DNA from: Escherichia coli | Lineage (GTDB): Bacteria > Pseudomonadota > Gammaproteobacteria > Enterobacterales > Enterobacteriaceae | Assembly: GCF_001677475.2 (NCBI RefSeq) | Contig: NZ_CP015229.1 | Direction: 5' to 3' (one strand) | Length of the DNA: 64,000 bases | In this document: piece by piece, positions 5,306 to 56,262 of the stretch | How the letters are laid out: every line of letters starts with the position of its first letter | How positions within the stretch are numbered: position 1 is the first letter of the stretch | Made by a program: the position numbers and the translations under genes | Notes under the pieces: generated by a model | What the model was told of the DNA's origin: nothing | Databases searched by the model: none | The model's input: the letters and a program-made list of their open reading frames with translations, nothing else

Positions 5306-5617
5306 CATTTTAACTTTAGTAATATTCTTCAGAGATCACAAACTGGTTATTGATAACTTATTCTTGGGCAGTAATCCGCAAACGTTAACTTTTTGTTTAC
5401 TATTTACAAACTGATAACAACCAGGAATCTTACTTAGGATCAATATATGGAGTGCGTGATGGAGAAATCTGAAGTATTGATTAGTGTTAATAGACGTATT
5501 AGTTCACGAAGGGCAAAGTTCTTATAGGCGTTTACTATATTGAACAACGATTCGGACAAGGATGTAAATAATGAAAAGGATGACATGTTCGAAACGATAA
5601 CGGCTAAGGAGCAAGTT

Positions 5618-6145
5618 ATGATTTTTCTCATGACGAAAGATTCTTTTCTTTTACAGGGCTTTTGGCAGTTGAAAGATAATCACGAAATGATAAAAATCAA
5701 TTCCCTGTCAGAGATCAAAAAAGTAGGCAATAAACCCTTCAAGGTTATCATTGATACCTATCACAATCATATCCTTGATGAAGAAGCGATTAAATTTCTG
5801 GAGAAATTAGATGCCGAGAGAATTATTGTTTTGGCACCTTATCACATCAGTAAACTAAAAGCTAAAGCGCCTATTTATTTTGTCAGCCGCAAAGAAAGCA
5901 TCAAAAATCTTCTTGAGATTACTTATGGTAAACACTTGCCCCATAAGAATTCACAATTATGTTTTTCACATAATCAGTTCAAAATTATGCAACTGATTCT
6001 GAAAAATAAAAATGAAAGCAATATCACGTCGACGCTCAATATTTCGCAACAAACATTAAAGATTCAGAAATTCAACATTATGTACAAGCTGAAACTAAGA
6101 CGTATGAGCGACATCGTCACCCTGGGTATCACATCTTATTTTTAG
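5618..6145 (+). CDS. gadE: LuxR-family acid-resistance activator GadE, 175 aa
   Basis: Protein MIFLMTKDSFLLQGFWQLKDNHEM...; ATG at 5618 preceded by AAGGAG; the ORF-track start at 5540 is an upstream extension. Confidence 0.95.
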   Translation: MIFLMTKDSFLLQGFWQLKDNHEMIKINSLSEIKKVGNKPFKVIIDTYHNHILDEEAIKFLEKLDAERIIVLAPYHISKLKAKAPIYFVSRKESIKNLLEITYGKHLPHKNSQLCFSHNQFKIMQLILKNKNESNITSTLNISQQTLKIQKFNIMYKLKLRRMSDIVTLGITSYF

Positions 6146-6483
6146 TCAGGACATAAGCAACTGAAATTGATGGCTGGCATGACGAGGGATGCAGATGCTG
6201 ATTTCATTACCCCCGGTGATTACTAAAGGAGAGGTTAAAACGACTTTATTCCCCTGGTATGTGTATCCACCAGTAGAACCCTTCGTTGCCCGAATGCTGG
6301 CAGGAACTGTTGGCAGAACGGCAACATTTTTTTTGTCGTTGACCTCACCATGTCGATCACTATGCCTGTATCCCACCTTACTGGCTGACAACCCCACTAT
6401 GCCGCTGGTCTGTAAATCCCTCATATCTCTCCTCGCGCGCAATTTAAAGAACCGTTATTTCTCAAGAATTTTCAGGGACTAAA

Positions 6484-7641
6484 ATGAACAGAAGAAGAAA
6501 GCTGTTAATACCGTTGTTATTCTGCGGCGCGATGCTCACCGCCTGCGATGACAAATCGGCGGAAAACGCCGCCGCCATGACGCCTGAGGTCGGTGTCGTC
6601 ACACTCTCCCCCGGTTCGGTCAATGTATTGAGCGAATTGCCCGGTAGAACCGTTCCTTATGAAGTTGCCGAGATACGTCCCCAGGTGGGCGGTATTATCA
6701 TTAAACGCAACTTTATCGAAGGCGATAAAGTGAACCAGGGCGATTCGCTGTATCAGATTGATCCTGCACCTTTACAGGCCGAGCTGAACTCCGCCAAAGG
6801 CACGCTGGCGAAAGCGCTCTCTACCGCCAGCAATGCCCGCATCACCTTTAACCGCCAGGCATCGTTGCTGAAGACCAACTACGTTAGCCGTCAGGATTAC
6901 GACACCGCGCGCACCCAGTTGAATGAAGCAGAAGCCAATGTCACCGTCGCCAAAGCGGCTGTTGAACAGGCGACTATCAACCTGCAATACGCAAATGTCA
7001 CCTCGCCGATTACGGGCGTCAGCGGGAAATCGTCGGTGACCGTCGGCGCACTCGTTACCGCTAATCAGGCAGATTCGCTGGTTACCGTACAACGTCTGGA
7101 CCCGATTTATGTCGATCTCACGCAGTCGGTGCAGGATTTCTTGCGCATGAAAGAAGAGGTCGCCAGTGGGCAAATCAAACAGGTTCAGGGCAGTACGCCA
7201 GTACAGCTCAATCTGGAAAATGGTAAACGTTACAGCCAGACCGGCACGCTGAAATTCTCCGACCCAACGGTAGATGAAACCACGGGCTCCGTGACGTTAC
7301 GGGCGATTTTCCCCAACCCAAATGGTGACTTGCTGCCTGGCATGTATGTCACGGCATTAGTGGATGAAGGTAGCCGCCAGAATGTATTACTGGTGCCGCA
7401 GGAAGGCGTCACCCACAACGCCCAGGGTAAAGCAACGGCGCTCATTCTGGATAAAGACGATGTTGTGCAGCTACGCGAAATTGAAGCCAGCAAAGCCATC
7501 GGCGACCAGTGGGTCGTCACCTCTGGCTTGCAGGCTGGCGATCGGGTGATCGTTTCCGGTTTGCAACGCATTCGTCCGGGTATCAAAGCACGAGCAATTT
7601 CCTCCAGCCAGGAAAACGCCAGCACCGAATCGAAACAATAA
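6484..7641 (+). CDS. mdtE: RND efflux pump periplasmic adaptor (membrane fusion protein), 385 aa
   Basis: Lipoprotein signal (LTAC) followed by HlyD-like adaptor sequence; immediately upstream of the RND pump gene. Confidence 0.95.
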   Translation: MNRRRKLLIPLLFCGAMLTACDDKSAENAAAMTPEVGVVTLSPGSVNVLSELPGRTVPYEVAEIRPQVGGIIIKRNFIEGDKVNQGDSLYQIDPAPLQAELNSAKGTLAKALSTASNARITFNRQASLLKTNYVSRQDYDTARTQLNEAEANVTVAKAAVEQATINLQYANVTSPITGVSGKSSVTVGALVTANQADSLVTVQRLDPIYVDLTQSVQDFLRMKEEVASGQIKQVQGSTPVQLNLENGKRYSQTGTLKFSDPTVDETTGSVTLRAIFPNPNGDLLPGMYVTALVDEGSRQNVLLVPQEGVTHNAQGKATALILDKDDVVQLREIEASKAIGDQWVVTSGLQAGDRVIVSGLQRIRPGIKARAISSSQENASTESKQ

Positions 7642-7665
7642 CGTTGCAGGCTTAAGGGGACTTTC

Positions 7666-10600
7666 ATGGCTAACTATTTTATTGATCGCCCGGTTTTTGC
7701 CTGGGTACTTGCCATTATTATGATGCTTGCAGGCGGTCTGGCGATCATGAACTTACCGGTTGCGCAGTATCCGCAGATTGCGCCACCGACCATTACCGTC
7801 AGCGCTACCTATCCTGGTGCCGATGCGCAAACAGTAGAAGACTCGGTCACTCAGGTGATTGAGCAAAATATGAATGGGCTTGATGGCCTGATGTACATGT
7901 CTTCAACCAGTGATGCGGCGGGTAATGCCTCTATCACTCTGACCTTCGAGACTGGGACATCGCCTGATATCGCACAGGTTCAGGTGCAAAATAAACTGCA
8001 ACTCGCTATGCCTTCATTACCTGAAGCGGTGCAGCAGCAGGGGATTAGCGTCGATAAGTCGAGCAGTAATATCCTGATGGTAGCGGCGTTCATTTCTGAT
8101 AACGGCAGCCTCAACCAGTACGATATCGCCGACTATGTCGCGTCTAATATCAAAGACCCGCTAAGCCGTACCGCGGGCGTTGGTAGCGTACAACTCTTTG
8201 GTTCCGAGTATGCCATGCGTATCTGGCTGGACCCGCAAAAACTCAATAAATATAACCTGGTACCTTCCGATGTTATTTCCCAGATTAAGGTGCAAAACAA
8301 CCAGATTTCCGGTGGTCAACTGGGTGGCATGCCACAGGCGGCAGACCAGCAACTGAACGCCTCGATCATTGTGCAGACTCGTCTGCAAACGCCGGAAGAA
8401 TTTGGCAAAATCCTGTTGAAAGTTCAGCAAGATGGTTCGCAAGTGCTGCTGCGTGATGTCGCCCGCGTCGAACTTGGGGCGGAAGATTATTCCACCGTGG
8501 CGCGCTATAACGGCAAACCTGCTGCCGGGATCGCCATCAAACTGGCTGCCGGAGCGAACGCCCTGGATACCTCGCGGGCAGTCAAAGAGGAGCTGAACCG
8601 CTTATCAGCCTATTTCCCCGCAAGTCTGAAGACGGTTTATCCTTACGACACCACGCCGTTTATCGAAATTTCTATTCAGGAAGTTTTCAAAACACTGGTT
8701 GAGGCTATCATCCTCGTCTTCCTGGTCATGTATCTGTTTTTGCAGAATTTCCGTGCCACAATCATCCCGACAATTGCCGTACCGGTGGTTATTCTCGGGA
8801 CGTTTGCGATCTTGTCGGCGGTCGGTTTTACCATCAACACGTTGACTATGTTCGGGATGGTGCTGGCGATAGGGTTACTGGTGGATGACGCCATCGTGGT
8901 GGTGGAGAACGTCGAGCGTGTCATTGCGGAAGATAAGCTACCGCCGAAGGAAGCGACGCATAAATCGATGGGGCAGATCCAACGTGCGCTGGTCGGTATT
9001 GCCGTTGTTCTTTCTGCAGTGTTTATGCCGATGGCCTTTATGAGCGGTGCAACCGGGGAGATCTACCGCCAGTTTTCCATCACGCTGATCTCCTCCATGC
9101 TGCTTTCAGTATTTGTGGCAATGAGCCTGACCCCTGCCCTGTGCGCCACCATTCTGAAAGCCGCGCCGGAAGGCGGTCACAAACCTAACGCCCTGTTCGC
9201 ACGCTTCAACACGCTGTTTGAAAAATCAACTCAGCACTATACCGACAGCACCCGCTCGCTATTGCGTTGTACCGGTCGCTACATGGTGGTCTACCTCCTG
9301 ATTTGCGCCGGGATGGCGGTGCTGTTCCTGCGCACGCCGACCTCTTTCTTACCAGAAGAGGATCAGGGGGTATTTATGACCACCGCGCAGTTACCGTCCG
9401 GTGCCACCATGGTTAACACCACGAAAGTGCTGCAACAGGTGACAGATTATTATCTGACTAAAGAGAAAGATAATGTTCAGTCGGTGTTTACCGTTGGCGG
9501 CTTTGGCTTCAGCGGCCAAGGGCAAAACAACGGTCTGGCGTTTATCAGTCTCAAACCGTGGTCTGAACGTGTCGGTGAGGAAAACTCGGTTACCGCGATC
9601 ATTCAGCGGGCAATGATCGCGCTAAGCAGTATCAATAAAGCCGTCGTCTTCCCGTTCAACTTACCCGCGGTGGCTGAACTGGGTACCGCGTCAGGTTTTG
9701 ATATGGAACTGCTGGACAACGGTAACCTGGGGCACGAAAAACTAACCCAGGCGCGAAACGAGCTGTTATCACTGGCAGCGCAATCACCGAATCAGGTCAC
9801 CGGGGTACGCCCGAACGGCCTGGAAGATACGCCGATGTTCAAAGTGAACGTCAACGCCGCGAAAGCTGAGGCAATGGGTGTGGCGCTGTCTGATATCAAC
9901 CAGACAATTTCCACCGCCTTCGGCAGCAGCTACGTGAACGACTTCCTCAACCAGGGGCGGGTGAAAAAAGTGTATGTCCAGGCAGGCACGCCGTTCCGTA
10001 TGTTGCCGGATAACATCAACCAGTGGTATGTACGCAACGCCTCTGGCACGATGGCACCGCTTTCGGCCTATTCGTCTACCGAATGGACCTATGGTTCACC
10101 GCGACTGGAACGCTACAACGGCATCCCGTCAATGGAGATTTTAGGTGAAGCGGCTGCCGGGAAAAGTACCGGTGACGCCATGAAATTTATGGCAGACCTG
10201 GTCGCTAAACTTCCGGCAGGCGTCGGCTACTCATGGACCGGACTGTCGTATCAGGAAGCGTTATCCTCAAACCAGGCTCCCGCGCTGTATGCCATTTCAC
10301 TGGTCGTGGTGTTCCTCGCCCTCGCCGCACTTTATGAGAGCTGGTCAATTCCGTTCTCGGTGATGTTGGTTGTACCGTTAGGCGTCGTTGGCGCATTACT
10401 GGCCACCGATCTACGTGGCTTAAGTAATGACGTCTACTTCCAGGTTGGTTTGCTGACCACCATCGGGCTTTCCGCCAAGAACGCCATCCTGATTGTCGAA
10501 TTTGCCGTTGAGATGATGCAGAAAGAAGGGAAAACGCCGATAGAGGCGATCATCGAAGCGGCGCGAATGCGTTTACGCCCAATCCTGATGACCTCTCTGG

Positions 10601-10779
10601 CCTTTATTCTCGGCGTGCTGCCGCTGGTAATCAGTCATGGTGCCGGTTCCGGCGCGCAAAACGCGGTAGGTACCGGCGTGATGGGCGGGATGTTTGCCGC
10701 AACAGTGCTGGCCATTTACTTCGTTCCAGTCTTTTTCGTTGTAGTGGAACATCTCTTTGCCCGCTTTAAAAAAGCGTAA
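7666..10779 (+). CDS. mdtF: RND multidrug efflux transporter (AcrB family), 1037 aa
   Basis: Protein [41 protein letters not shown]... is a typical AcrB-family N-terminus; length 1037 aa. Confidence 0.95.
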
Positions 10780-10792
10780 CGTGTAAATGAGA

Positions 10793-10830
10793 GTAAGGTT
10801 GAACGTGAGGGTTCAGCCTTACTCTTTCCT
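10793..10830 (+). terminator. Intrinsic terminator of mdtF (gtaaggttgaac-gtgag-ggttcagccttac then TCTTTCC)
   Basis: Inverted repeat with one mismatch, 14 bp after the mdtF stop, followed by a T-rich run. Confidence 0.55.
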
Positions 10831-11141
10831 GCTAACCATTCACCACTCAACAACCAGCTAACCGTCAGGAATACCAGGCTTAGTACACAGCACTGAAAGT
10901 AAAAACCACTCCAGCCATTCGTCATCAATTTGAACAGCACAATACTGACCCACATTCCCGTAATCGTATGAATTGTCAGCTTAATAATCCCAAACATGCC
11001 GAGTCTTTTCCTCCTGAAAATACCTGTACCGCCTGGCAAACTGCGAAAGAGAACTAGCCGGTAGCCCGGCAGAAATCATCAGGGAAGAGTTTCACATGAA
11101 GCACGTGTGAGATCCTGACCAATATTCAAATGCGAAATATG

Positions 11142-11870
11142 TCAGGAAAAGGTACCTGGCGAATGTTGCGCAAACTGATGTGGCGTTACACCATAATATT
11201 GTCGAAATGTGTTTATAAAGTACGACGTACTGCTATATCCACATTTTTCCGCAATAGTATGCAGAGGAATTTGACGTAACTCGAGTAATCGTCTGGCCAT
11301 CGACATCCTGGAGGCGAGTAATATTTTACTGAAACAGGTATTTTCATCCTGCAACTTTTTTTTGATGAGACTCTCGCTGGTATACATTCTTTCCGCGATA
11401 TCGCGCAGATACCAACGTTTGGCGATATCAAAGCTAATAAGGCGTTCAACTTTTCCTGAAACAGTACTGATACTATTGAAAAGTAAGGGGATCAGTTCTT
11501 TCTTATGAGAAAACATCGATAAACAGGAAAGATAGAGCATTTTGCTCAGTATCGGCGAATTTACCCCGGAGTCATTGAAACTATCAAAAATCGCCGTCAC
11601 CAGAGGCATGGGGGGGGACTGGTTAATTAACAAACGGTCTTTGCTATGTAACCCTAAATTGCGTGGTAGCTGACGAATATTTTGTAAGTAATGGCAAATT
11701 GTCAGCTCATCGATATCCAGCCGTCGCGTATCCGGTGAACAAAACGCAAAATCGTCTGCCAAATTTTTATCCAGTAACAGGATACTCTCGTTGTGCAACG
11801 ATATTTTTTGCTGTTCATGATAAATATCGAATGAACGACGAACGAGGATCACCGAGCAGACATGAGTCAT
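11142..11870 (-). CDS. gadW: AraC-family acid-resistance regulator GadW, 242 aa
   Basis: Protein MTHVCSVILVRRSFDIYHEQQK... with C-terminal AraC helix-turn-helix; ATG verified at 11868-11870. Confidence 0.95.
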   Translation of the reverse strand: MTHVCSVILVRRSFDIYHEQQKISLHNESILLLDKNLADDFAFCSPDTRRLDIDELTICHYLQNIRQLPRNLGLHSKDRLLINQSPPMPLVTAIFDSFNDSGVNSPILSKMLYLSCLSMFSHKKELIPLLFNSISTVSGKVERLISFDIAKRWYLRDIAERMYTSESLIKKKLQDENTCFSKILLASRMSMARRLLELRQIPLHTIAEKCGYSSTSYFINTFRQYYGVTPHQFAQHSPGTFS

Positions 11871-12116
11871 GACTATCCCTTATATTTCATTACTGCGATT
11901 ATTTCAATTTCAGTATACTAATGAAATGATGCCAGACTGTTTCTTCGTGCAAAAACTGCCATATTTGGTAGGACCAAAATTTATCCACAAAGTAGTTTTG
12001 CATAACATTTAATTGATAATAAGTAAATGCAACACGAATATATTTTCACACGGCGTATAGCTTATGTTTATAAAAAAATGGCTGATCTTATTTCCAGTAA
12101 AAGTTATATTTAACTT

Positions 12117-12222
12117 ACTGAGAGCACAAAGTTTCCCGTGCCAACAGGGAGTGTTATAACGGTTTATTAGTCTGGAGACGGCAGACTATCCTCTTCCCGG
12201 TCCCCTATGCCGGGTTTTTTTT
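12117..12222 (+). ncRNA. gadY: GadY small RNA, antisense to the gadX 3' end
   Basis: Sequence ACTGAGAGCACAAAGTTTCCCGTGCCAACAGGGAG...CCCGGTCCCCTATGCCGGG followed by T8 on the + strand matches the GadY sequence as I recall it; terminator hairpin plus U-run seen directly. Confidence 0.7.
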
Positions 12223-12238
12223 ATCTCTGAGTAAAACT

Positions 12239-13063
12239 CTACAATCTTATTCCTTCCGCAGAACGGTCAGTGCCGTAAAAATTCCCTTGTGCAACAATAC
12301 TTGCCGCCGAGTCACGGTTCGGCAATCCCTGCGCTGATCGCTCCTGATACTCTGTGGGCGTCATCCCATAATAATTTCGAAAAACGAAAATGAAATACGA
12401 CACGCTGTGATATCCACAGGACACTGCAACTCGCTTAATTGAAAAACCATGTATAACAATAAGTTGCAAAGCACGTTGCATTCTACACTCAGTAAGCAAC
12501 TGTGAATATGATGTCTCTTCTTCGCGCAATTTTTTCTTTAACAGGCTTGGACTCATCAACAGCTCGCTGGCGATTCGGGCTAGTGTCCACTCATGTGCGA
12601 TATTATTATTGATAACCGTACAAACTCGTGTTCGCATGTTCGGTTGCAAAACGTTCAGAAGTAGCGGTATAAACTGCTCATCCTCCAGAAAAACAGATAA
12701 CAGCGCAAAGATTAATGCTCTTTTACGTAGCGTTTCTGCATAGCGAAGATTCTTATTCTGCGATAGTTGCGCAACTTCCTGAAAAACAGGAATATCTCTG
12801 GTACAGTGATGAACGAGTAATGAAGGAACTTTTTTATGTGCATGAAGTTTTAATGCCTCCTCCTTGAGCATCGGGAGAAATAATGAAAGCGTATCCCTTG
12901 AAACTAATACGAAATGTTCAACACACTTATCTACTCGAATTTGGCTTGCATCCGCAAAAACCAGATCACCGCCATTAAAATAGCGATATTCACCATTAAC
13001 CATGGTGAGAATATATTTATGTCTTGCGTACGCAATTAGACAATTCCCATGTAGTGATTGCAT
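12239..13063 (-). CDS. gadX: AraC-family acid-resistance regulator GadX, 274 aa
   Basis: Protein MQSLHGNCLIAYARHKYILTMVNGEYRYF...; TAG stop verified at 12239-12241. Confidence 0.95.
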   Translation of the reverse strand: MQSLHGNCLIAYARHKYILTMVNGEYRYFNGGDLVFADASQIRVDKCVEHFVLVSRDTLSLFLPMLKEEALKLHAHKKVPSLLVHHCTRDIPVFQEVAQLSQNKNLRYAETLRKRALIFALLSVFLEDEQFIPLLLNVLQPNMRTRVCTVINNNIAHEWTLARIASELLMSPSLLKKKLREEETSYSQLLTECRMQRALQLIVIHGFSIKRVAVSCGYHSVSYFIFVFRNYYGMTPTEYQERSAQGLPNRDSAASIVAQGNFYGTDRSAEGIRL

Positions 13064-13422
13064 AGTTGGCTTAATATTACATAAACATATTACTGTTTAT
13101 TAATGTAGCACGCCGCCCTCTTAAGTCAAATTGATTGATAAATAAATTTAAACGAAGCGGGAAAACAGGATGATAATCTACGGGCAGGATGACTGGATTT
13201 ATAATACAAAAGGCGTGCTTAAGAACGCAGTGAAATTAATAGTAAGCAAATAATCTCTTACAGTGACATTAAAAACATCCGTTACATTGAATAAACATTC
13301 ATATAACATATATCTTATCAACACGATGAATAGACAGCCAATATATTATTGCTATTAATAAGCAACCGAATGCCCAACTGTTTTTTAAAGGTTGGGCATT
13401 CGGTTTTTACAACGTTATGTTA

Positions 13423-14823
13423 TCAGGTGTGTTTAAAGCTGTTCTGCTGGGCAATACCCTGTAGTTTCGGGTGATCGCTGAGATATTTCAGGGAGGCTTT
13501 GTAGTCTTCCAGCAACAGTTCAGCAAAGTCCATTTCGAAGCCGCGACGACACATAATGCGCATCACCACGATGTCAGTGGCTTCACCGCCGAGAGTGAAG
13601 GCCGGAACCTGCCAGCCGCGCAGACGCAGACGTTCAGAGAGGTCGTAGAGGGTGTATCCCGGATCTTCACCATCTTTCAGTTTGAAGCAAACCGCCGGGA
13701 TGCCTTCATCCGGGCGACCGGTACAGATAAACTCATACGGCCCCAGTTTGGCGATTTCATCCGCCAGATAAGCGGCAACCTGGTAGGAAGCGTTCTGTAC
13801 TTTGGTATAGCCTTCACGACCAAGGCGCAGGAATTCATAGTACTGTGCAATCACCTGACCCGCCGGGCGGGAGAAGTTGATGGCGAAAGTCCCAATCTGA
13901 CCACCGAGGTAGTCAACGTTGAACACCAGTTCCTGCGGCAGCGCTTCTTCATCACGCCAGATAACCCAGCCGCAGCCCAGCGGAGCCAGACCGAATTTAT
14001 GGCCTGAAGCACTGATCGATTTCACACGCGGCAGGCGGAAGTCCCAGACGATATCCGGGGCAACGAACGGTGCCAGGAAGCCACCGCTGGCAGCGTCGAT
14101 GTGCATGTCGATGTCGATACCGGTGTCGGCCTGGAATTTATCCAGTGCATCGTGCAGCGGTTGCGGGAACTCATAGTTACCGGTGTAGGTCACGCCGAAA
14201 GTCGGCACCACGCCGATGGTGTTTTCGTCGCAGGCTTCAATCATGCGTTTCGGGTCCATAAACAACTGACCGGGGCGCATAGGGATCTCACGCAGCTCCA
14301 CATCCCAGTAGCGGGCGAATTTATGCCAGCAGATTTGTACCGGACCGCACACCAGGTTTGGTTTATCCGTTGGTTTGCCTGCAGCTTCCATACGCTTGCG
14401 CCAACGCCATTTCATCGCCATCCCGCCGAGCATACAGGCCTCGGAAGAACCAATGGTGTTGGTGCCAACGGCCTGACCATTTTTCGGCGCAGGCGCATGC
14501 CACAGATCGGCAACCATATTTACGCAACGCAGGTCGATGGCTGCGGATTGCGGATATTCTTCTTTGTCGATCCAGTTTTTATTGATCGACAAATCCATCA
14601 ATTTATGGACGTTTTCGTCGTCCCAGGTCTGGCAAAAAGTGGCCAGGTTCTGACGAGCGTTGCCATCAAGATATAATTCGTCATTGATAATCTGGAATGC
14701 GACATCATCTCGCATTTCATGCAGCGGAAATCGTTTTGACTCCGCGATAGTAGAAATGGCCTTTGCGCCAAAACGTGAATCGAGTAGCTCTGAGCGGAAA
14801 TCCGTTAACAGCTTCTGGTCCAT
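13423..14823 (-). CDS. gadA: Glutamate decarboxylase A (PLP-dependent), 466 aa
   Basis: Protein [40 protein letters not shown]...; start trimmed from ORF-track 14886 to the ATG at 14821-14823. Confidence 0.95.
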
Positions 14824-15033
14824 TTCGAACTCCTTAAATTTATTTGAAGGCAATAAAAAAGTAGGATTTATCCGCAATGGAAGCAAGGCATTACAGGCTT
14901 AATTTAAATAACAAAATCCTAAGCAGAAAAACGACTTTTTATAATATAAACATTTAACATGATAATATTAAAAACAGACTTTATTATCGCAATAAAAATC
15001 ACCCGAACATTCCTGTTCGGGCGATTAAATTAA

Positions 15034-16431
15034 TTATTGTTTATCCTGCATATACGGCGTGTAAACCCCGTTCAGACTGTGCAGGAAAGCTACGATATCA
15101 TCCACATCCTCCTGCGGCAGCTCTTTGCCTACCTGATAGCGCAACATCAGTTTCACCGCCCCGTCCAGCGTCGGCACATCACCGCGATGGAAGTACGGTG
15201 CCGTTAGTGCAACGTTACGTAAACCGGGTACTTTCTGACGCAATTTATCGCGCTCTTCTTTAGTAACATTCATACGACCAATATCCGCCGCCGTAATTTC
15301 ACCAAAGTTAAAGTCTTTTTTCAGCCCCAACGGTTCGAAGGAACGTCCGCCGAGAATAATACCACCATGACAAGTTGCACATTTATTATCTTTAAATAAT
15401 TGATAACCTTTTTTCTGTTGTGCCGTCAGCGCATTCTCATCTCCACGCAACCATTTATCAAATGGGGAATCCGGCGTAATTAATGTTTTCTCAAATTCAG
15501 CAATGGCATCAGTAATATTTTCGCCACTGAAACCTTGCGGATAGACTTCAAGGAACTGCGCTTTAAGCTGCGGATCTTTTTCCAGCTTAGCAATAATTTC
15601 GTCCCAGGATTTCGACGCCATTTCAATCGGATTCAACGGCGGTCCACCAGCCTGATCCTGCAATGTTGCCGCACGACCATCCCAGAACTGCTCAACGTTA
15701 AATACTGAGTTAAATACCGTCGGCGCGTTAATCGGCCCCACTGCGCCACCAACACCAATCGATGTTTTTCTGCCATCGACGCCCCCCGCATTCAACGCAT
15801 GGCAATGAGCGCATGAAATGGTGCTATCAGCCGATAAACGGGGATCGTGATACAGCGCAAAGCCCAACGCCACTTTTTGCGCATCGGTAGGCAGTTTTTG
15901 CGGGATGGGCTGCACCGGTTCATTGCGATGCTCCGGAGCAGTGTCATTACTGGCGTAATATTCCGCGCGCTGTTTTGCAATCCAGGCCAGTATTTCCGCC
16001 CGCTCTTCATCACTCACCTTACCCGCCCAGTGTAGCGCGGTATAACGCGTTGGTGGCATAGTTTCATACTGCATCACCCATTCAATCTTATTCAGATCGC
16101 TTTGCGAAACGGGTTTATCAGCCAACAGAGCCGCACGCACGGCCTCAAGATTAAAAGATTTATATCCGAGCTTAATGTCGTAATCCATCAACTGTTTCGC
16201 GCCAGGAATATAATAATAGGCGGGTAATTCTGCCGAAGGCGTATGGCAATAGTCGCATCCCTTTTCGCGGAGAAAGCCTAAAACCTTATTATTTTCACTG
16301 ACAGCAGATGCCTGAACATCGGCCTGTTTACTGCGTTTATTATCGTGGTACCACACATAACCAGATAACCCTAAATAGCAAATCGCGACGCCAGCCAGGC
16401 CGATCGCGGTAATACGTGAGACCATTTTCAT
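15034..16431 (-). CDS. yhjA: Di-heme cytochrome c peroxidase, 465 aa
   Basis: Two CxxCH heme-binding motifs (CDYCH, CAHCH) plus a third (CATCH); N-terminal membrane anchor. Confidence 0.9.
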   Translation of the reverse strand: MKMVSRITAIGLAGVAICYLGLSGYVWYHDNKRSKQADVQASAVSENNKVLGFLREKGCDYCHTPSAELPAYYYIPGAKQLMDYDIKLGYKSFNLEAVRAALLADKPVSQSDLNKIEWVMQYETMPPTRYTALHWAGKVSDEERAEILAWIAKQRAEYYASNDTAPEHRNEPVQPIPQKLPTDAQKVALGFALYHDPRLSADSTISCAHCHALNAGGVDGRKTSIGVGGAVGPINAPTVFNSVFNVEQFWDGRAATLQDQAGGPPLNPIEMASKSWDEIIAKLEKDPQLKAQFLEVYPQGFSGENITDAIAEFEKTLITPDSPFDKWLRGDENALTAQQKKGYQLFKDNKCATCHGGIILGGRSFEPLGLKKDFNFGEITAADIGRMNVTKEERDKLRQKVPGLRNVALTAPYFHRGDVPTLDGAVKLMLRYQVGKELPQEDVDDIVAFLHSLNGVYTPYMQDKQ

Positions 16432-16805
16432 TATTCTTCCCTCACGGTGGTGAGTTATTGTGACCCAGAAAATTTTCCAGAATGCTGCAAACGTCTCTGC
16501 GAGACAAAGCCATCATAAAAAACAGGGAGATACGCTTTTTGATAGGAATCAATCAATTACATGAATATAAACTATCAATAAGATAGCCTGTGCCTATTAC
16601 CCAGATCAGGAATGGCATATCATGATTGCGGCGAGAGCAGGATTGAATGTTCTGAAAATGAAAAACAACACGAAATCTGTATTTTTATAAATTCCATTGA
16701 TATTAGTGCGTTATATTTTTTGATAAGTTAATAAACGTGATCCACCGCACGCTTTGTCGCCCACCAGGCGGAGCGAATGACTACCCTTAAAGAAAAGCCC
16801 GATAA

Positions 16806-18485
<1,680 letters not shown>

Positions 18486-43700: not shown

Positions 43701-45272
43701 ATGAGGGACATTGTGGACCCTGTATTCTCTATCGGTATCTCATCATTATGGGATGAGCTGCGACATATGCCAGCAGGCGGCGTCTGGTGGTTTAACGTCG
43801 ATCGCCATGAAGATGCTATCAGTCTGGCGAATCAAACAATTGCATCCCAGGCTGAAACCGCACACGTCGCGGTCATTAGCATGGACAGCGATCCGGCGAA
43901 AATCTTTCAATTAGATGATTCTCAAGGGCCGGAAAAAATAAAATTATTTTCAATGCTAAATCATGAAAAAGGTCTATACTATTTGGCCCGTGATTTGCAG
44001 TGTTCTATTGAACCCCATAATTACCTTTTTATTCTTGTTTGCGCAAATAACGCATGGCAAAACATTCCTGCCGAGCGGCTTCGCTCATGGTTGGATAAAA
44101 TGAATAAATGGAGCAGGTTAAACCATTGTTCGCTTTTGGTAATTAATCCCGGAAATAATAACGATAAACAATTTTCATTGTTGCTTGAGGAATACCGTTC
44201 ACTTTTTGGTCTTGCCAGTTTGCGTTTTCAGGGTGACCAACATTTGCTGGATATTGCCTTCTGGTGCAACGAAAAAGGGGTTAGCGCCCGTCAGCAGCTT
44301 AGCGTTCAGCAACAAAATGGTATCTGGACATTAGTTCAAAGCGAAGAGGCGGAGATCCAACCACGCAGCGACGAAAAACGCATTCTGAGTAATGTTGCTG
44401 TACTGGAAGGTGCGCCGCCGCTATCGGAACACTGGCAACTGTTCAACAATAACGAAGTTCTGTTCAATGAAGCCCGTACCGCTCAGGCGGCGACGGTGGT
44501 CTTTTCTTTACAGCAAAATGCGCAAATCGAGCCACTGGCCCGCAGCATTCATACTCTGCGTCGCCAGCGCGGTAGTGCGATGAAAATCCTCGTACGGGAA
44601 AATACCGCAAGCCTGCGCGCCACCGATGAACGTTTGTTATTGGCCTGCGGTGCAAATATGGTTATCCCGTGGAATGCGCCACTCTCCCGTTGTCTGACGA
44701 TGATCGAAAGCGTGCAAGGGCAGAAGTTTAGTCGCTATGTGCCGGAAGATATCACTACCTTGCTGTCAATGACCCAGCCGCTCAAACTGCGTGGTTTCCA
44801 GAAGTGGGATGTGTTCTGTAATGCCGTCAACAACATGATGAATAACCCTCTATTACCTGCCCACGGTAAAGGCGTTCTGGTTGCCCTACGTCCGGTACCG
44901 GGTATCCGCGTTGAACAAGCCCTGACGCTGTGTCGCCCTAACCGTACCGGCGATATCATGACCATTGGCGGTAATCGGCTGGTGCTGTTTCTCTCATTCT
45001 GTCGGATTAACGATCTGGATACCGCGTTGAATCATATTTTCCCATTGCCTACTGGCGACATTTTCTCAAACCGTATGGTCTGGTTTGAAGATGATCAAAT
45101 CAGTGCCGAGCTGGTGCAGATGCGCCTGCTTGCCCCAGAACAATGGGGCATGCCGCTGCCTTTAACGCAAAATTCTAAACCGGTCATTAATGCCGAGCAC
45201 GATGGTCGCCACTGGCGACGAATACCAGAACCCATGCGACTGTTAGATGATGCTGTGGAGCGCTCATCATGA
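43701..45272 (+). CDS. bcsE: c-di-GMP-binding cellulose biosynthesis protein BcsE, 523 aa
   Basis: 523-aa protein divergent from bcsR; first gene of bcsEFG. Confidence 0.95.
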
Positions 45273-45460
45273 TGACCATCAGCGATATCATTGAAATTAT
45301 TGTCGTTTGCGCACTGATATTTTTCCCGCTGGGCTATCTGGCGCGGCACTCTTTGCGACGCATTCGCGACACCTTACGTTTGTTCTTTGCTAAACCTCGT
45401 TATGTTAAACCGGCCGGGACGTTACGCCGCACGGAAAAAGCCAGGGCAACCAAAAAATGA
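45269..45460 (+). CDS. bcsF: Small membrane protein BcsF, 63 aa
   Basis: Single-TM 63-aa protein; start overlaps the bcsE stop and stop overlaps the bcsG start. Confidence 0.9.
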
Positions 45461-47136
45461 CTCAATTTACGCAAAATACCGCCATGCCTTCTTCCCTCTG
45501 GCAATACTGGCGCGGCCTTTCCGGCTGGAACTTCTATTTTCTGGTTAAGTTCGGCCTGTTGTGGGCAGGATATCTTAACTTCCATCCGCTCCTCAATCTG
45601 GTGTTTGCCGCGTTTCTGCTGATGCCCATTCCGCGCTACAGCCTGCATCGCTTACGCCACTGGATTGCCCTGCCGATCGGCTTTGCTTTGTTCTGGCATG
45701 ACACCTGGTTGCCTGGCCCGGAAAGCATAATGAGCCAGGGTTCGCAGGTGGCGGGGTTCAGTACCGATTATTTAATCGACCTTGTCACACGCTTTATTAA
45801 CTGGCAGATGATTGGGGCCATTTTTGTTTTATTAGTGGCCTGGTTATTCCTGTCACAATGGATTCGCATTACCGTTTTTGTGGTTGCCATTCTGCTATGG
45901 CTGAACGTACTTACCCTGGCGGGACCAAGTTTCTCCTTGTGGCCAGCCGGTCAACCGACGACCACTGTAACAACGACGGGTGGTAACGCAGCGGCAACCG
46001 TTGCGGCGACGGGTGGCGCACCGGTAGTGGGTGATATGCCCGCACAAACTGCACCGCCAACAACGGCGAACCTTAACGCCTGGCTGAATAATTTCTATAA
46101 CGCGGAGGCGAAACGTAAATCGACCTTCCCGTCTTCGCTGCCCGCTGATGCTCAGCCATTTGAACTACTGGTGATTAATATCTGTTCGCTTTCCTGGTCG
46201 GATATTGAAGCCGCCGGGTTGATGTCGCATCCGCTGTGGTCACATTTCGATATTGAGTTCAAGAACTTTAACTCCGCCACCTCCTACAGTGGCCCGGCGG
46301 CGATCCGTTTACTGCGCGCCAGCTGCGGGCAGACTTCGCATACTAATCTGTATCAACCGGCAAATAATGACTGCTATCTGTTTGATAACCTGTCGAAACT
46401 GGGCTTTACCCAGCACCTGATGATGGGACATAACGGCCAGTTCGGCGGTTTTTTGAAAGAAGTTCGCGAAAATGGCGGCATGCAGAGCGAATTGATGGAT
46501 CAAACAAATCTGCCGGTTATTTTGCTGGGCTTTGATGGTTCGCCGGTTTATGACGATACCGCCGTGCTTAACCGCTGGCTGGACGTTACCGAAAAAGATA
46601 AAAACAGCCGTAGTGCCACGTTCTATAACACGCTTCCACTGCATGACGGCAACCATTATCCGGGCGTCAGCAAAACAGCGGATTACAAAGCGCGGGCGCA
46701 GAAATTCTTTGATGAACTGGACGCCTTCTTTACTGAACTGGAGAAATCGGGTCGTAAAGTGATGGTGGTCGTGGTGCCGGAACACGGTGGCGCGCTGAAG
46801 GGCGACAGAATGCAGGTATCTGGCCTACGTGATATCCCTAGCCCGTCTATCACAGACGTCCCCGTTGGGGTGAAATTCTTCGGCATGAAGGCACCACATC
46901 AGGGGGCACCGATTGTCATCGACCAACCGAGCAGCTTCCTGGCTATCTCCGATCTAGTGGTTCGCGTTCTTGATGGCAAGATTTTCTCCGAAGACAATGT
47001 TGACTGGAAAAAACTCACCAGTGGGTTACCACAAACAGCACCGGTCTCCGAGAACTCAAATGCAGTAGTTATTCAATACCAGGATAAACCGTACGTTCGC
47101 CTGAACGGCGGCGACTGGGTGCCTTACCCGCAATAA
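45457..47136 (+). CDS. bcsG: Cellulose phosphoethanolamine transferase BcsG, 559 aa
   Basis: N-terminal TM segments and C-terminal alkaline-phosphatase-like domain; last gene of bcsEFG. Confidence 0.95.
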
Positions 47137-47141
47137 GAACG

Positions 47142-47172
47142 AAAAAGGCCGCAGAGTTTCACCCCTGCGGCC
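47142..47172 (-). terminator. Intrinsic terminator of ldr copy 1 (hairpin ggccgcag/ctgcggcc plus U-run on the minus strand)
   Basis: 8-bp perfect stem with A5 on the + strand (U5 on the minus strand); identical hairpin repeated at about 47625-47655 for copy 2. Confidence 0.6.
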
Positions 47173-47222
47173 TGGTCCGGGCGCAAATTGCCATTACGGC
47201 AGCCTGACGCCCGCATGACACG

Positions 47223-47330
47223 TTACTTCCGCTTGTTCAGCCAGTTCACGATCATACTGGCAAGAATGCCAGCAATGACCGGAGCCGCTAAATCATGCCA
47301 GAAGGCCATGCCCAGCTCTGCGAGCGTCAT
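47223..47330 (-). CDS. ldrD: Ldr-family type I toxin peptide, 35 aa (copy 1)
   Basis: Translates to MTLAELGMAFWHDLAAPVIAGILASMIVNWLNKRK, a hydrophobic 35-aa Ldr toxin; too short for the ORF track. Confidence 0.85.
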   Translation of the reverse strand: MTLAELGMAFWHDLAAPVIAGILASMIVNWLNKRK

Positions 47331-47379
47331 ATAGCCGCCTGTGTTGTAATGACAACGTTTCGCGGCTATTCTTGAGTGG

Positions 47380-47445
47380 TCTAGGTTCAAGATTAGCCCC
47401 CGTTATGTTGTCAGGTGCATACCTGCAACGTGCGGGGGTTTTCTC
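47380..47445 (+). ncRNA. rdlD: Rdl-type antisense RNA (antitoxin) of ldr copy 1; 5' end approximate
   Basis: + strand hairpin CCCCCG...TGCGGGGG followed by TTTTCT (47396-47444); sigma70-like TTGTAA-17bp-TATTCT upstream; lies antisense to the ldr leader. Confidence 0.55.
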
Positions 47446-47705
47446 TCTCCAGCAACCAATGCCACCAGGGATAAAGCCCCCGCAACATTGCGCCTCACCG
47501 GAACCCTTCCGGCTTGCCGCTGATTCTACGACTGTTTTTCTGTTCCGGAATCCGTCACGTCTTCACTCTGTGCTGCGCATTCCGCAGAATATTATCCGCG
47601 TGCAATCGTTGCATTTTTCTTACGAAAAAGGCCGCAGAGTTTCACCCCTGCGGCCTGGTCCGGGCGCAAATTGCCATTACGGCAGCCTGACGCCCGCATG
47701 ACACG

Positions 47706-47813
47706 TTACTTCCGCTTGTTCAGCCAGTTCACGATCATACTGGCAAGAATGCCAGCAATGACCGGAGCCGCTAAATCATGCCAGAAGGCCATGCCCAGTT
47801 CTGCGAGCGTCAT
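47706..47813 (-). CDS. Ldr-family type I toxin peptide, 35 aa (copy 2)
   Basis: Same 35-aa peptide as copy 1, with one synonymous difference (GAA vs GAG at codon 5); it is the C-terminal part of ORF-track entry 47706..47981. Confidence 0.85.
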   Translation of the reverse strand: MTLAELGMAFWHDLAAPVIAGILASMIVNWLNKRK

Positions 47814-47861
47814 ATAGCCGCCTGTGTTGTAATGACAACGTTTCGCGGCTATTCTTGAGTT

Positions 47862-47927
47862 GTTCAGGTTCAAGAATGGCCCCCGTGATGTTGTCAGGTG
47901 CATACCTGCAACGTGCGGGGGTTTTCT
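47862..47927 (+). ncRNA. Rdl-type antisense RNA (antitoxin) of ldr copy 2; 5' end approximate
   Basis: Second copy of the hairpin-plus-U-run terminator (47879-47927) in the same relative position to ldr copy 2. Confidence 0.55.
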
Positions 47928-48288
47928 CTCTCCAGCAACCAATGCCACCAGGGATAAAGCCCCCGCAACATTGCGCCTCACCGGAACCCTTCCGGCTTGC
48001 CGCTGATTTTACGATTGCTTTTTACTGTCAGCACCCGGCAATCTTCCTCATTGCGTGATGCCTTCCAGCTTAATTTCTTAATTTGCAATAGTTGCAGTTC
48101 ATATCCGGGCTGACTCCAGACTGGTAGTGAAATGCGCAATTTTGTAGAATTGCGCCTCCTCGCGACCTCCCCAGTGAATCTGTTGCCTCATTTTTTACAT
48201 ACTGCGTATTCGACTTCTCCACCTGTTGCGCAAGAGAAACTGGGTTTATTCATTTTTGCGAGGCCGACTTCTTTCTGGACAGGACTTT

Positions 48289-49560
48289 ATGCAGCACAAC
48301 ACACTACCGAAACACGATCAGAAAATGCCGTTTACACGCTACGACTTCGGCTGGGTTTTATTATGTATAGGCATGGCGATTGGTGCCGGAACCGTGCTGA
48401 TGCCAGTACAAATTGGCTTGAAGGGAATTTGGGTATTTATTACCGCAGCGATCATTGCTTATCCTGCCACCTGGGTAGTGCAGGACATTTATTTAAAAAC
48501 CCTTTCTGAAAGCGATTCCTGTAATGACTACACCGATATTATCAGTCATTACCTGGGGAAGAACTGGGGAATTTTCCTCGGGGTTATCTACTTTTTGATG
48601 ATTATCCACGGGATTTTTATCTACTCTCTCTCCGTGGTTTTCGACAGCGCCTCGTACCTGAAAACCTTCGGTTTAACCGATGCCGATCTTTCACAATCTC
48701 TACTTTATAAAGTCGCTATTTTCGCCGTACTGGTGGCGATTGCGTCTGGTGGTGAACGATTACTGTTTAAGATTTCCGGGCCAATGGTGGTGGTCAAAGT
48801 AGGGATTATTGTCGTGTTCGGTTTTGCGATGATCCCGCACTGGAATTTCGCCAATATAACCGCCTTCCCGCAAGCCTCCGTCTTTTTCCGCGATGTCCTG
48901 CTTACCATTCCATTTTGCTTCTTTTCTGCAGTATTTATTCAGGTACTTAACCCAATGAATATTGCCTATCGTAAACGGGAAGCGGATAAAGTACTGGCAA
49001 CCCGGCTCGCGCTGCGTACCCACCGAATTAGTTATATCACGCTCATCGCGGTGATCCTGTTTTTTGCCTTTTCGTTTACCTTCTCAATTAGCCACGAAGA
49101 AGCCGTTTCTGCCTTTGAACAAAATATCTCGGCACTGGCACTGGCCGCGCAGGTGATCCCTGGGCATATCATTCATATCACCTCTACGGTGCTGAATATC
49201 TTTGCCGTACTGACCGCATTCTTTGGCATTTATCTCGGTTTCCACGAGGCTATTAAAGGCATTATTCTCAATCTGTTAAGCCGAATTATTGATACCAAGA
49301 AAATTAACTCACGCATGCTGACTCTGGCGATCTGCGCTTTTATCGTCATTACGTTGACGATTTGGGTTTCGTTTCGTGTATCGGTGCTGGTGTTCTTTCA
49401 GTTGGGAAGCCCGTTATATGGCATTGTGTCGTGCCTCATTCCATTTTTCCTGATCTATAAAGTCGCACAACTGGAAAAACTTCGCGGGTTTAAAGCCTGG
49501 CTGATTCTGCTGTACGGCATTTTGTTATGCTTGTCGCCACTGTTGAAGCTGATTGAGTAA
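48289..49560 (+). CDS. yhjV: Amino-acid permease-family inner membrane transporter, 423 aa
   Basis: Protein [39 protein letters not shown]...; ATG at 48289 is in frame with the ORF-track entry that starts at 48226. Confidence 0.9.
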
Positions 49561-49589
49561 ACCGGAGCGCATGGCCCCGGTTTTGTGAG

Positions 49590-50594
49590 TTAACGCTGCG
49601 GATTTTCATCCTGATCAACAGCAAAACAAGCTACCAGTTGACCGCCGTAGTCTTTTAGCTGCGGCTGCAACTGGGTGCAGGGGCCGAAGCGCCGACGACA
49701 GCGGGCGTTAAACGCGCAGCCCGGCGGTGGATTGAGCGGGCTTGGCAGTTCACCGGTGAGCTTGATGCGCTCGCGGCGATCGTCCGGGTTCAGGCGCGGC
49801 GTCGCGGAGAGTAGCGCCTGAGTGTACGGATGACGCGGGTTATTGAAGATTTGGTCCTTCGTTCCCTTCTCCACGCAGCGGCCCAAGTACATCACCATCA
49901 CTTCATCGGCAATGTGCTCAACCACTGACAGGTCGTGCGAGATAAAGACATAAGACAGCCCCAACTCCTGCTGCAAATCCATCATCAGATTCAGCACCTG
50001 CGCACGCACTGAAACGTCCAGCGCGGAAACCGGTTCATCGGCAATCACCACATCCGGGTCGAGCATCAGACCTCGGGCAATGGCGATACGCTGACGCTGA
50101 CCGCCGGAGAACATATGCGGATAGCGGTCGTAATGCTCGGTTTTCAGGCCGACTTTCGCCATCATCGACAGGGCTTTTTCCCGACGCTGTTCTTTGCTTA
50201 AGCTGGTGTTGATCAGCAGCGGCTCTTCGAGAATTTGCCCAACTTTTTTACGCGGATTCAGCGAACCGTAAGGGTTCTGGAAGACAATCTGGATTTTCTG
50301 CCGACGCAGCTTCTGCGCCTGCGGATCGTGCTTAAGCAGATCCTGCCCCTGGTAATACAGCTCGCCGCCGGTGGGCGTTTCAATCATCGTCAGCAACCGA
50401 CCGAGGGTCGATTTACCGCAGCCAGATTCGCCCACTACTGCCAGCGTTTTGCCACGTTCAAGGTTAAACGAAACACCATCCAGCGCCTTCACCAGACGTT
50501 CCGGTGCGAACATACCTTTCTTCACCGGATAATGTTTTTTCAGGTCGATAGCCTGCAACAGCGGTTGTTGCGAGGTGGCCTCTTGCGTACTCAT
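49590..50594 (-). CDS. dppF: Dipeptide ABC transporter ATP-binding protein DppF, 334 aa
   Basis: Walker A (GESGCGKST), ABC signature (FSGGQRQR); last gene of the dpp operon. Confidence 0.95.
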
Positions 50595-51574
50595 AGTGTG
50601 GGCCTCCCGGCATCATCAAGTGGGTAATGGCATTTGGACTGACGCCCGTCAGCGAGCATATTCAGCGCCGGTTCTTCAGCACGGCATTTGTCAGTGGCGT
50701 AGGGGCAGCGCGGGTTAAGCAGGCAGCCGTTCGGGCGGTCATACTTGCCAGGAACAACACCTGGCAACGACGCCAGACGTTCTTTGTCCTGAGCAAATTC
50801 CGGCAGCGCACGCAGCAATGCCTGAGTATACGGGTGACGCGGCGCATGGAAGATGGCGTGCGCATCGCCCGTTTCCACCACCTGACCTGCATACATCACG
50901 ATGATTTTATGTGCCGCTTCCGCCACCAGCGCCAGGTCATGAGTGATCAACACCAGCGCCATGTTCTCTTTCTGCTGTAGCTCCAGCAGCAGTTCGATAA
51001 TTTGCGCCTGAATGGTCACGTCCAGCGCAGTGGTTGGTTCATCGGCAATCAGCAGCTTTGGCCGACAGGCAATCGCCATGGCGATCATCACGCGCTGGCT
51101 CATGCCGCCGGAAAGCTGATGCGGGTAAACATCCAAACGCGAAGCCGGATCGGGAATACCGACCAGATTCAGCAGGTCAATCGCTCGCTGACGGCGGGTA
51201 CTTTTGTTGCCGCCCTGATGCACCTTAATCGCTTCCATGATCTGGAAACCCACGGTGTAGCACGGGTTAAGGCTGGTCATCGGGTCCTGGAAGATCATCG
51301 CCACTTCGGCACCCACCAGGTTGCGGCGCTCTTTTTCTGAGATACGCTGTAAATCCTGACCGTTAAACTCCAGCTTTTCCGCCATTACGCGGCCCGGATA
51401 ATCAATCAGCCCCATAATCGCCAGCGAACTGACCGATTTACCAGAGCCGGACTCACCCACAATCCCGACCACTTCGCCCTGTTTTACGCTGTAGCTGATG
51501 CGGTCTACGGCGCGGAACGGTGCGCTTTCGTCACCGAAATGCACCGATAATTTATCTACATTTAATAACGCCAT
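50591..51574 (-). CDS. dppD: Dipeptide ABC transporter ATP-binding protein DppD, 327 aa
   Basis: Walker A (GESGSGKS), ABC signature (LSGGMSQR); stop overlaps the dppF start by 4 bp. Confidence 0.95.
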
Positions 51575-51584
51575 CTCGAACCTC

Positions 51585-52487
51585 TTACTGCTTCAGTTTG
51601 GGATCGAGCGCGTCACGCAGACCGTCACCCATCAGGTTAAATGCCAGCACCGTCAGCAGGATCGCCAGACCCGGGAAGGTCACGACCCACCAGGCGCTTT
51701 GCGCGAACTGCAACACATCGGAGAGCATGGTGCCCCACTCCGGCGTTGGCGGCTGCGCTCCCATGCCGAGGAAGCCAAGGGCGGCCATATCGAGAATGGC
51801 GTTAGAGAAACCGAGCGACGCCTGAACAATCAGCGGCGCAAGGCAGTTCGGGAAGATGTTTATAAACATCTGGCGCATCGCCCCGGCACCCGCCACGCGA
51901 GACGCGGTAACGTAATCGCGATTCACCTCCACCAGCACGGCGGCGCGGGTTAAGCGCACATAGTGCGGCAAGGCAACGAAGGTTAGCGCCAGCGCGGCGT
52001 TACCAATCGACGGGCCGAAAATCGCCACCAGCACCAGTGCCAACAGCAGACTTGGCAGCGCCAGCATGATATCGACCACGCGCATGATGATGTTATCGAC
52101 CAGACCGCCAAAGTAACCGGCGATCAGGCCGAGAATAACGCCCATAATCAGCGATAACACAACTACCAGACAGCCAACCAGCAGCGACAAGCGCGCGCCG
52201 TACATCAGCCGCGACAGCACATCACGGCCTACGTCATCGGTGCCCAGCAAGTGCGCCATGCTGCCGCCTTCCTGCCAGGCTGGCGGGGCGAGCAGTGCAT
52301 CGCGGAACTGTTCCGCCGGGTTATAGGGTGCAATCCAGTTGGCAAAGATCGCGATAAACAGCACGATGACGACGTAAACCAGCCCGACAACCGCGCCTTT
52401 GTTGCGTTTAAAATAGTGCCAGAACTCCTGTAACGGGGTCATCGGCACCGGTGCGCTAATCACTTTATTTTCAGTAACCTGTGACAT
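51585..52487 (-). CDS. dppC: Dipeptide ABC transporter permease DppC, 300 aa
   Basis: Binding-protein-dependent transport permease sequence, 300 aa. Confidence 0.95.
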
Positions 52488-55274: not shown

Positions 55275-55854
55275 TATTCTGCTCCAATTGTGATGTTTGT
55301 TGTTTTAACCCTTTGCAGTGGGTTGTCGCTGCCTGACCTTTTTTGTTTTTTACCCGGTCGGGTCAACGTTATGAGGTGGGGATGCCGTACTAATTAACAT
55401 CAGTGTAACAGTGCGGATCCTCCATAAAATGCCCCTCGTGACCTACAATCTGTCAACAGAATGTGAAAACGTCAATACAGCCAACCGGGATTTACACCAA
55501 CGGTGAGAATCCACAAACAAAGATTAAAAAAACTTCAAACAGCTATTTGCAGCAGAGAAATTTGTGCTACTCCAACATGACCAGAACAATCAGCTTAATA
55601 TTTAGCAACATTTGGTGATTAAGTTTTATGCATTTAGTGAAAAAAATCTGAGGAAAAGGTGGATATCTGAGCGATTAATACCATGAACGCTAAAACGCAC
55701 AGCGGAAAATGCCAGCGCCAGCCATAAGTAACGCAATAATAGATTTAAGCAAATATAAAAAAAGACAATGGTTTCTGTCACAAATCCGTTAATGGATAGT
55801 GAGATATGGGGCGCAAATTTGGCAGGGAAATGTGTGATGTGTAGGTCGAATAAG

Positions 55855-55929
55855 GTGTTCACGCCGCATCCGACAATGGGCCGGCACATTTGCCTGATGC
55901 GACGCTGGCGCGTCTTATCAGGCCTAGGT
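55855..55929. repeat. REP extragenic palindromes
   Basis: GTGTTCACGCCGCATCCGACA and GCCTGATGCGACGCTGGCGCGTCTTATCAGGCC units seen directly. Confidence 0.75.

Positions 55930-56262
<333 letters not shown>

Follow-up and report, generated by a model that had tools for sequence, protein, structure and literature searches.

The stretch of DNA analysed here (the window) covers 64,000 nucleotides of Escherichia coli contig NZ_CP015229.1. It contained gadW (11142-11870, minus strand), the gene for the small RNA (sRNA) GadY (12117-12222, plus strand) and gadX (12239-13063, minus strand), in the same order as in K-12 and in strain EC42405. The open reading frames (ORFs) flanking GadY were closely related to their K-12 counterparts. 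GadX was 96% identical over all 274 amino acids, with 10 of 274 residues differing, and GadW was 98% identical. The features of the locus are listed below, each with the evidence for it in brackets.

12078..12085, plus strand: ATGGCTGA, a predicted match to the AppY-associated motif ATGSCWGM (sequence reading; motif from PMC10057817)
12082..12087, plus strand: putative −35 element CTGATC, 3/6 positions agreeing with TTGACA, 17 bp upstream of the −10 element (read by eye; invariant in 7 lineages)
12105..12110, plus strand: putative −10 element TATATT, 6 nt 5′ of the curated GadY start (read by eye; invariant in 7 lineages)
12117..12222, plus strand: GadY sRNA gene, 106 nt (Rfam RF00122; identity to K-12 b4452; conservation)
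12134..12150, plus strand: GadY 5′ hairpin UCCCGU...ACAGGGA, lying innermost in the Rfam 5′ domain at 12117-12163 (Rfam consensus structure; centroid fold)
12168..12188, plus strand: GadY central hairpin, 7-bp stem UAGUCUG / CAGACUA with a 7-nt loop (Rfam structure; MFE and centroid folds)
12196..12222, plus strand: GadY intrinsic terminator, CCCGGT-loop-GCCGGG (12196-12214) followed by T8 (12215-12222) (terminator scan; sequence; Rfam structure)
12223..12238, no strand: poorly conserved 16-nt spacer from the GadY T-run to the gadX stop (13/16 columns vary among 7 lineages)
12239..13063, minus strand: gadX coding sequence of 274 aa with its TAG stop at 12239-12241 (ORF list; 96% identity to K-12 GadX; RefSeq orthologue annotation)
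12117..12222, minus strand: target of GadY, the gadX 3′ UTR or gadX-gadW intercistronic RNA, perfectly complementary to GadY (same DNA, opposite strand)
11142..11870, minus strand: gadW coding sequence of 242 aa, the downstream member of the gadX-gadW transcript (ORF list; 98% identity to K-12 GadW; RefSeq annotation)

A scan of the whole window with Rfam 15 placed the GadY family (RF00122) at 12114-12227 on the plus strand with 147.1 bits (E = 4.3e-31). The match spanned model positions 1-114 of 114, and its sole mismatch to the family consensus lay 3′ of the T-run. Since it was full-length and the gathering score of the family is only 45 bits, the match was far past chance. In K-12 MG1655 the curated gadY ncRNA (b4452) occupies NC_000913.3 3664864-3664969 (106 nt), between gadW (b3515) and gadX (b3516) and on the strand opposite to them; the gadX coding region ends at 3664986. 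Alignment of the intergenic regions mapped this gene onto 12117-12222 of the window with 106 of 106 positions identical. A first-pass annotation, made from the sequence alone, had recognised GadY at this position. Its identification was borne out by the full-length Rfam match, the 100% identity to the curated gene and the conserved position between gadW and gadX, both of which lie on the other strand. The start it gave (12117) coincided with the curated K-12 start after transfer through the alignment. It had named alignment to the Rfam GadY family as a check and poor alignment as a reason for doubt, and the alignment obtained was anything but poor.

The terminator and its distance from gadX were read directly from 12114-12241. 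CCCGG lay at 12196-12200 and CCGGG at 12210-12214 on the plus strand, as had been claimed, followed by exactly eight T at 12215-12222, with the last T at 12222. A terminator scan reported this structure for the plus strand alone. It gave a 6-bp stem, five of its pairs G-C, that closes a 7-nt loop and runs into TTTTTTTTAT; the sixth pair, added to CCCGG/CCGGG, was T-G. The trinucleotide CTA at 12239-12241 on the plus strand is the reverse complement of TAG and terminates the 274-aa minus-strand ORF, which places the gadX stop codon where the first-pass annotation had it. The offset of 17 was likewise exact (12239 − 12222 = 17, with the 16 nt 12223-12238 in between), and the K-12 offset is also 17. 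The claim that GadY is antisense to the gadX 3′ UTR follows from this geometry, with the GadY template located 17-122 nt downstream of the gadX stop on the other strand.

The window and K-12 thus shared the 106-nt sequence, its position between gadW and gadX, its orientation, the terminator, the 17-nt offset from gadX and the upstream promoter block. There was no difference within the RNA. The nearest difference lay at 12225, 3 nt beyond the T-run, where the window has C instead of G; several more were found upstream in the intergenic region, in addition to the 10 residues in the neighbouring GadX.

Conservation was assessed within E. coli and across the genus. Of 5426 complete E. coli genomes, 5412 carried the 106-nt GadY stretch with an identity of 99% or more, and its location was always chromosomal. 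The 368-nt intergenic region and the 10-kb surrounding segment had a best identity of 98.4-98.5% to any of the 5426 genomes. As a separate observation on the window, neither 7000-17000 nor 44000-52000 exceeded 98.5% identity to the closest of these genomes, with GadY still 100% identical to K-12. When one genome from each GTDB species was scanned with a pattern for the GadY core, five Escherichia representatives matched, each with a full-length Rfam match of 123-150 bits; the 32-nt degenerate pattern demanded an exact match at 23 specified bases, and the scan says nothing on absence from other species such as E. albertii, E. fergusonii and E. marmotae. The five representatives, the window and K-12 were aligned as seven lineages. 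Within GadY only 4 of 108 columns varied; for the sequence flanking it on either side the figure was 51 of 116 (Fisher p = 1.7e-13; p = 1.1e-9 once the 32 pattern-forced columns were removed). Across the lineages aligned, 104-106 of the 106 GadY positions were kept while the flanks were 69-97% identical. The identity was 106/106 in the E. coli-like lineages and 104/106 in E. whittamii and E1V33, in which the immediate flanks were approximately 70% identical. GadY kept its position opposite the gadX 3′ UTR in every lineage examined.

Variability jumped at both ends of GadY: 13 of the 16 spacer columns 3′ of the T-run varied, and on the 5′ side the jump fell in the 3-4 bases directly before the +1 A. 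Because variability climbed so abruptly on both sides of the transcript, the ends set by comparison were the ends of the curated annotation. With these sharp edges, GadY offers a clean example of an sRNA gene delimited by comparative alignment.

Upstream of the RNA, we read TATATT (12105-12110) as the putative −10 element of gadY and CTGATC (12082-12087) as a candidate weak −35 element. The gadY promoter was absent from the list of a sigma-70 consensus scan, its match being too weak. The TATATT hexamer, CTGATC and the +1 A were all invariant across the seven Escherichia lineages aligned. The motif ATGSCWGM overlaps the gadY −35 element and contributes to activation by AppY (PMC10057817). Its plus-strand match at 12078-12085, ATGGCTGA, was intact in the window and K-12; of the five other Escherichia lineages, four had changes in it.

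The Rfam structure and the centroid and MFE folds all contained the same three GadY hairpins (12134-12150, 12168-12188 and 12196-12214). As a whole, GadY folded with an energy no better than that of shuffled sequence (z = −0.62). No compensatory changes were found in the GadY stems across the seven lineages, the RNA being too invariant for covariation to show: there were only two stem substitutions, at 12147 and 12163, both of them uncompensated. The former, in the 5′ hairpin, was a change from G to T in E. whittamii and E1V33. The central hairpin was invariant in all lineages, partly as the scan pattern demanded it. Since the stem substitutions were uncompensated and the RNA was so invariant, the assignment to the GadY family rests on sequence identity and genomic position rather than on covariation.

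On the minus strand, a simple pattern scan between the gadX stop and the gadW start (12238 to 11871) found no terminator-like site, which is consistent with read-through, so gadX transcripts should read through the region. A gadX transcript continuing towards gadW would be perfectly complementary to the whole of GadY, because GadY is templated by the same DNA. In the literature, gadX and gadW are transcribed together, and GadY, by pairing, directs the cutting of this gadX-gadW mRNA with a positive effect on both genes (PMC3937726); an effect on gadX is also given in PMC10057817. RNase III participates in the GadY-directed cleavage, which persists without RNase III (PMC3937726, PMC3919570). The nuclease is named inconsistently in PMC10783499, as RNase E in the text and as RNase III in a figure legend. 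GadY binds Hfq in K-12 (PMC11300174, PMC3937726). The first-pass annotation had described stabilisation of gadX mRNA through pairing with its 3′ UTR, which agrees with the literature; the later refinement, directed cleavage between gadX and gadW, was absent from it. Besides the RNA of approximately 105 nt, shorter processed forms of GadY reportedly exist, an observation ascribed to the 2004 work of Opdyke.

Taken together, 12117-12222 on the plus strand is very probably the gadY gene, cis-antisense to the gadX-gadW intercistronic RNA and acting by pairing-directed cleavage that raises both messages. GadY would be transcribed from a promoter with TATATT as its −10 element, and the CCCGG/CCGGG-T8 intrinsic terminator would end it 17 nt before the gadX stop is reached. 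Transcripts of gadX would run through the GadY region towards gadW, which would make GadY perfectly complementary to the gadX 3′ UTR, that is, to the gadX-gadW intercistronic RNA. Pairing would then produce a long RNA duplex and lead to cleavage in which RNase III would take part and for which another nuclease could substitute. This cleavage would separate the gadX and gadW messages and raise their levels, and higher GadX and GadW would in turn mean more expression of the glutamate decarboxylase acid-resistance genes that depend on them. The sequence identity, anatomy, position and conservation pattern of GadY were observed directly in the window and the alignments. Its transcription, Hfq binding, cleavage and positive effect on gadX are taken from the K-12 literature, and by analogy the same events would be expected in the strain of the window.

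The proposed mechanism resembles that of lambda OOP acting on cII-O and of the type I antitoxins Sok, IstR and OrzO. These are also short antisense RNAs that pair with an mRNA into a long perfect duplex; RNase III takes part in its cleavage, which without RNase III persists at shifted sites (PMC3919570). However, OOP, Sok, IstR and OrzO repress their targets, whereas GadY-directed cleavage falls between two coding regions and is positive for gadX and gadW (PMC3937726). Additionally, OrzO needs no Hfq (PMC3919570), whereas GadY binds it (PMC11300174). The layout is shared by SraG, whose gene, as PMC5029454 describes it, lies in the rpsO-pnp intercistronic region and is transcribed against the flanking genes. 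SraG has an unrelated sequence and belongs to another operon, and its likeness to GadY is one of layout only.

Both strands of a cis-antisense pair share the same DNA, and conservation alone cannot tell which of them is selected. The conserved block could in principle be held mainly by the minus strand, as a cis element of the gadX 3′ UTR or the gadW leader (a stability element, the gadW promoter or regulator-binding DNA), with the plus-strand RNA being incidental. The region does sit upstream of gadW, and the title of a 2008 paper by Tramonti, cited in PMC10783499 and PMC11300174, mentions gadY-gadW divergent promoters and GadX/GadW binding sites. However, the sequence matches an RNA family built on an experimentally detected sRNA, the K-12 curators place an ncRNA at exactly these coordinates, and effects of GadY on gadX are described in the literature (PMC3937726, PMC10057817). 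The edges of the block also fall at plus-strand signals: at one end the plus-strand start after the invariant −10 hexamer, and at the other a plus-strand terminator with a T-run that is functional on that strand only. Because the block is bounded by the start and terminator signals of the plus strand, we consider a role confined to the minus strand highly unlikely. Plasmid-borne GadY supplied in trans is said to have restored gadX-gadW processing in a K-12 chromosomal gadY promoter mutant, again in the 2004 work of Opdyke.

The invariance of GadY also bears on a second alternative, in which GadY would be chiefly a trans-acting, Hfq-dependent RNA directed at unlinked mRNAs such as sdiA, and its antisense relation to gadX would be secondary. 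The near-perfect invariance exceeds what a cis-antisense RNA needs. A U-rich terminator tail and AU-rich single-stranded sequence are typical of Hfq-binding sRNAs; the U8 tail of the GadY terminator and an AU-rich stretch at approximately 12151-12167, single-stranded in the predicted fold, resemble these features. GadY binds Hfq and base-pairs with sdiA mRNA (PMC11300174), and it affects biofilm formation (PMC10057817). Nevertheless, a cis role is compatible alongside a trans role, the location opposite the gadX 3′ UTR did not change among the lineages, and it is the cis effect that several sources document (PMC3919570, PMC3937726, PMC10057817). A predominantly trans-acting GadY would fit the data, but that the gadX relation is secondary to a trans function is very improbable.

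The GadY sequence itself would nevertheless be under selection, since cis-antisense complementarity survives any mutation and cannot explain the near-total invariance. One possible, if doubtful, reading of the sequence pattern is that the main selected role of GadY lies outside its antisense relationship with gadX. Such a role might involve pairing with unlinked trans targets or recognition, whether by Hfq or by the second nuclease that cuts double strands; the minus-strand RNA might also have a function of its own.

The remaining alternative, that the region codes for a 31-aa small protein (ORF 12064-12159, plus strand) instead of an ncRNA, was rejected as extremely improbable. The ATG-started ORF of 31 codons overlaps both the promoter and GadY, of which it covers the first 43 nt, and is intact in K-12. 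However, its start lies 53 nt upstream of the point where the curated transcript begins, conservation peaks downstream of it and not inside, and it is broken in three lineages, by a stop codon in MOD1-EC7003, by a frameshift in E69 and by loss of the start codon in E. whittamii.

The reading of the locus as gadY with a cis-antisense action on gadX-gadW adds an ordinary, already known feature to the window and nothing new. The label 'known feature' in the first-pass annotation was appropriate, as gadY has already been described and is gene b4452 of K-12. Among sRNAs encoded in cis, GadY is a textbook case of one that activates its target, and it belongs to the acid-resistance circuit with which E. 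coli survives stomach acid. Its confirmation here matters little beyond correct annotation. In the RefSeq/PGAP records of E. coli other than K-12, gadX and gadW were named and no feature under gadY appeared in any match listed; only the curated K-12 record carries gadY. Automatic annotation of the window would probably miss it.

Further small RNA features were observed in the window. An ES205 sRNA (RF02754) was found at 6263-6334 on the plus strand as a full-length Rfam match (105 bits, threshold 86) that has a hairpin and a U-run of its own. Flanked by a gadE-like ORF (5540-6145) and by mdtE (6484-7641), it is located in the 3′ region of gadE, within the acid fitness island to which GadY also belongs, and the match was also present in the loci of E69 and E. 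whittamii. At 56186-56262 the minus strand carries tRNA-Pro(CGG), followed by an RtT-family element at 56018-56151 (minus strand); a repeat-derived match to naRNA4 (CssrE) is located nearby at 55844-55924 on the plus strand.

Directly downstream of bcsG, a 300-nt direct repeat was present at 47139-47438 and 47622-47921, its copies 98% identical and spaced with a period of 483 bp. Each copy contained an Rfam match to the rdlD antitoxin (47379-47444 and 47862-47927, plus strand) opposite a 35-aa Ldr-type toxin ORF (MTLAELGMAFWHDLAAPVIAGILASMIVNWLNKRK). At 47139-47921, then, a type I toxin-antitoxin module has been duplicated in tandem. K-12 presumably has a single ldrD-rdlD copy at this site. 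The copy number looks polymorphic, because the 8-kb region with the repeat was covered in one place by only 2602 of the 5426 E. coli genomes.
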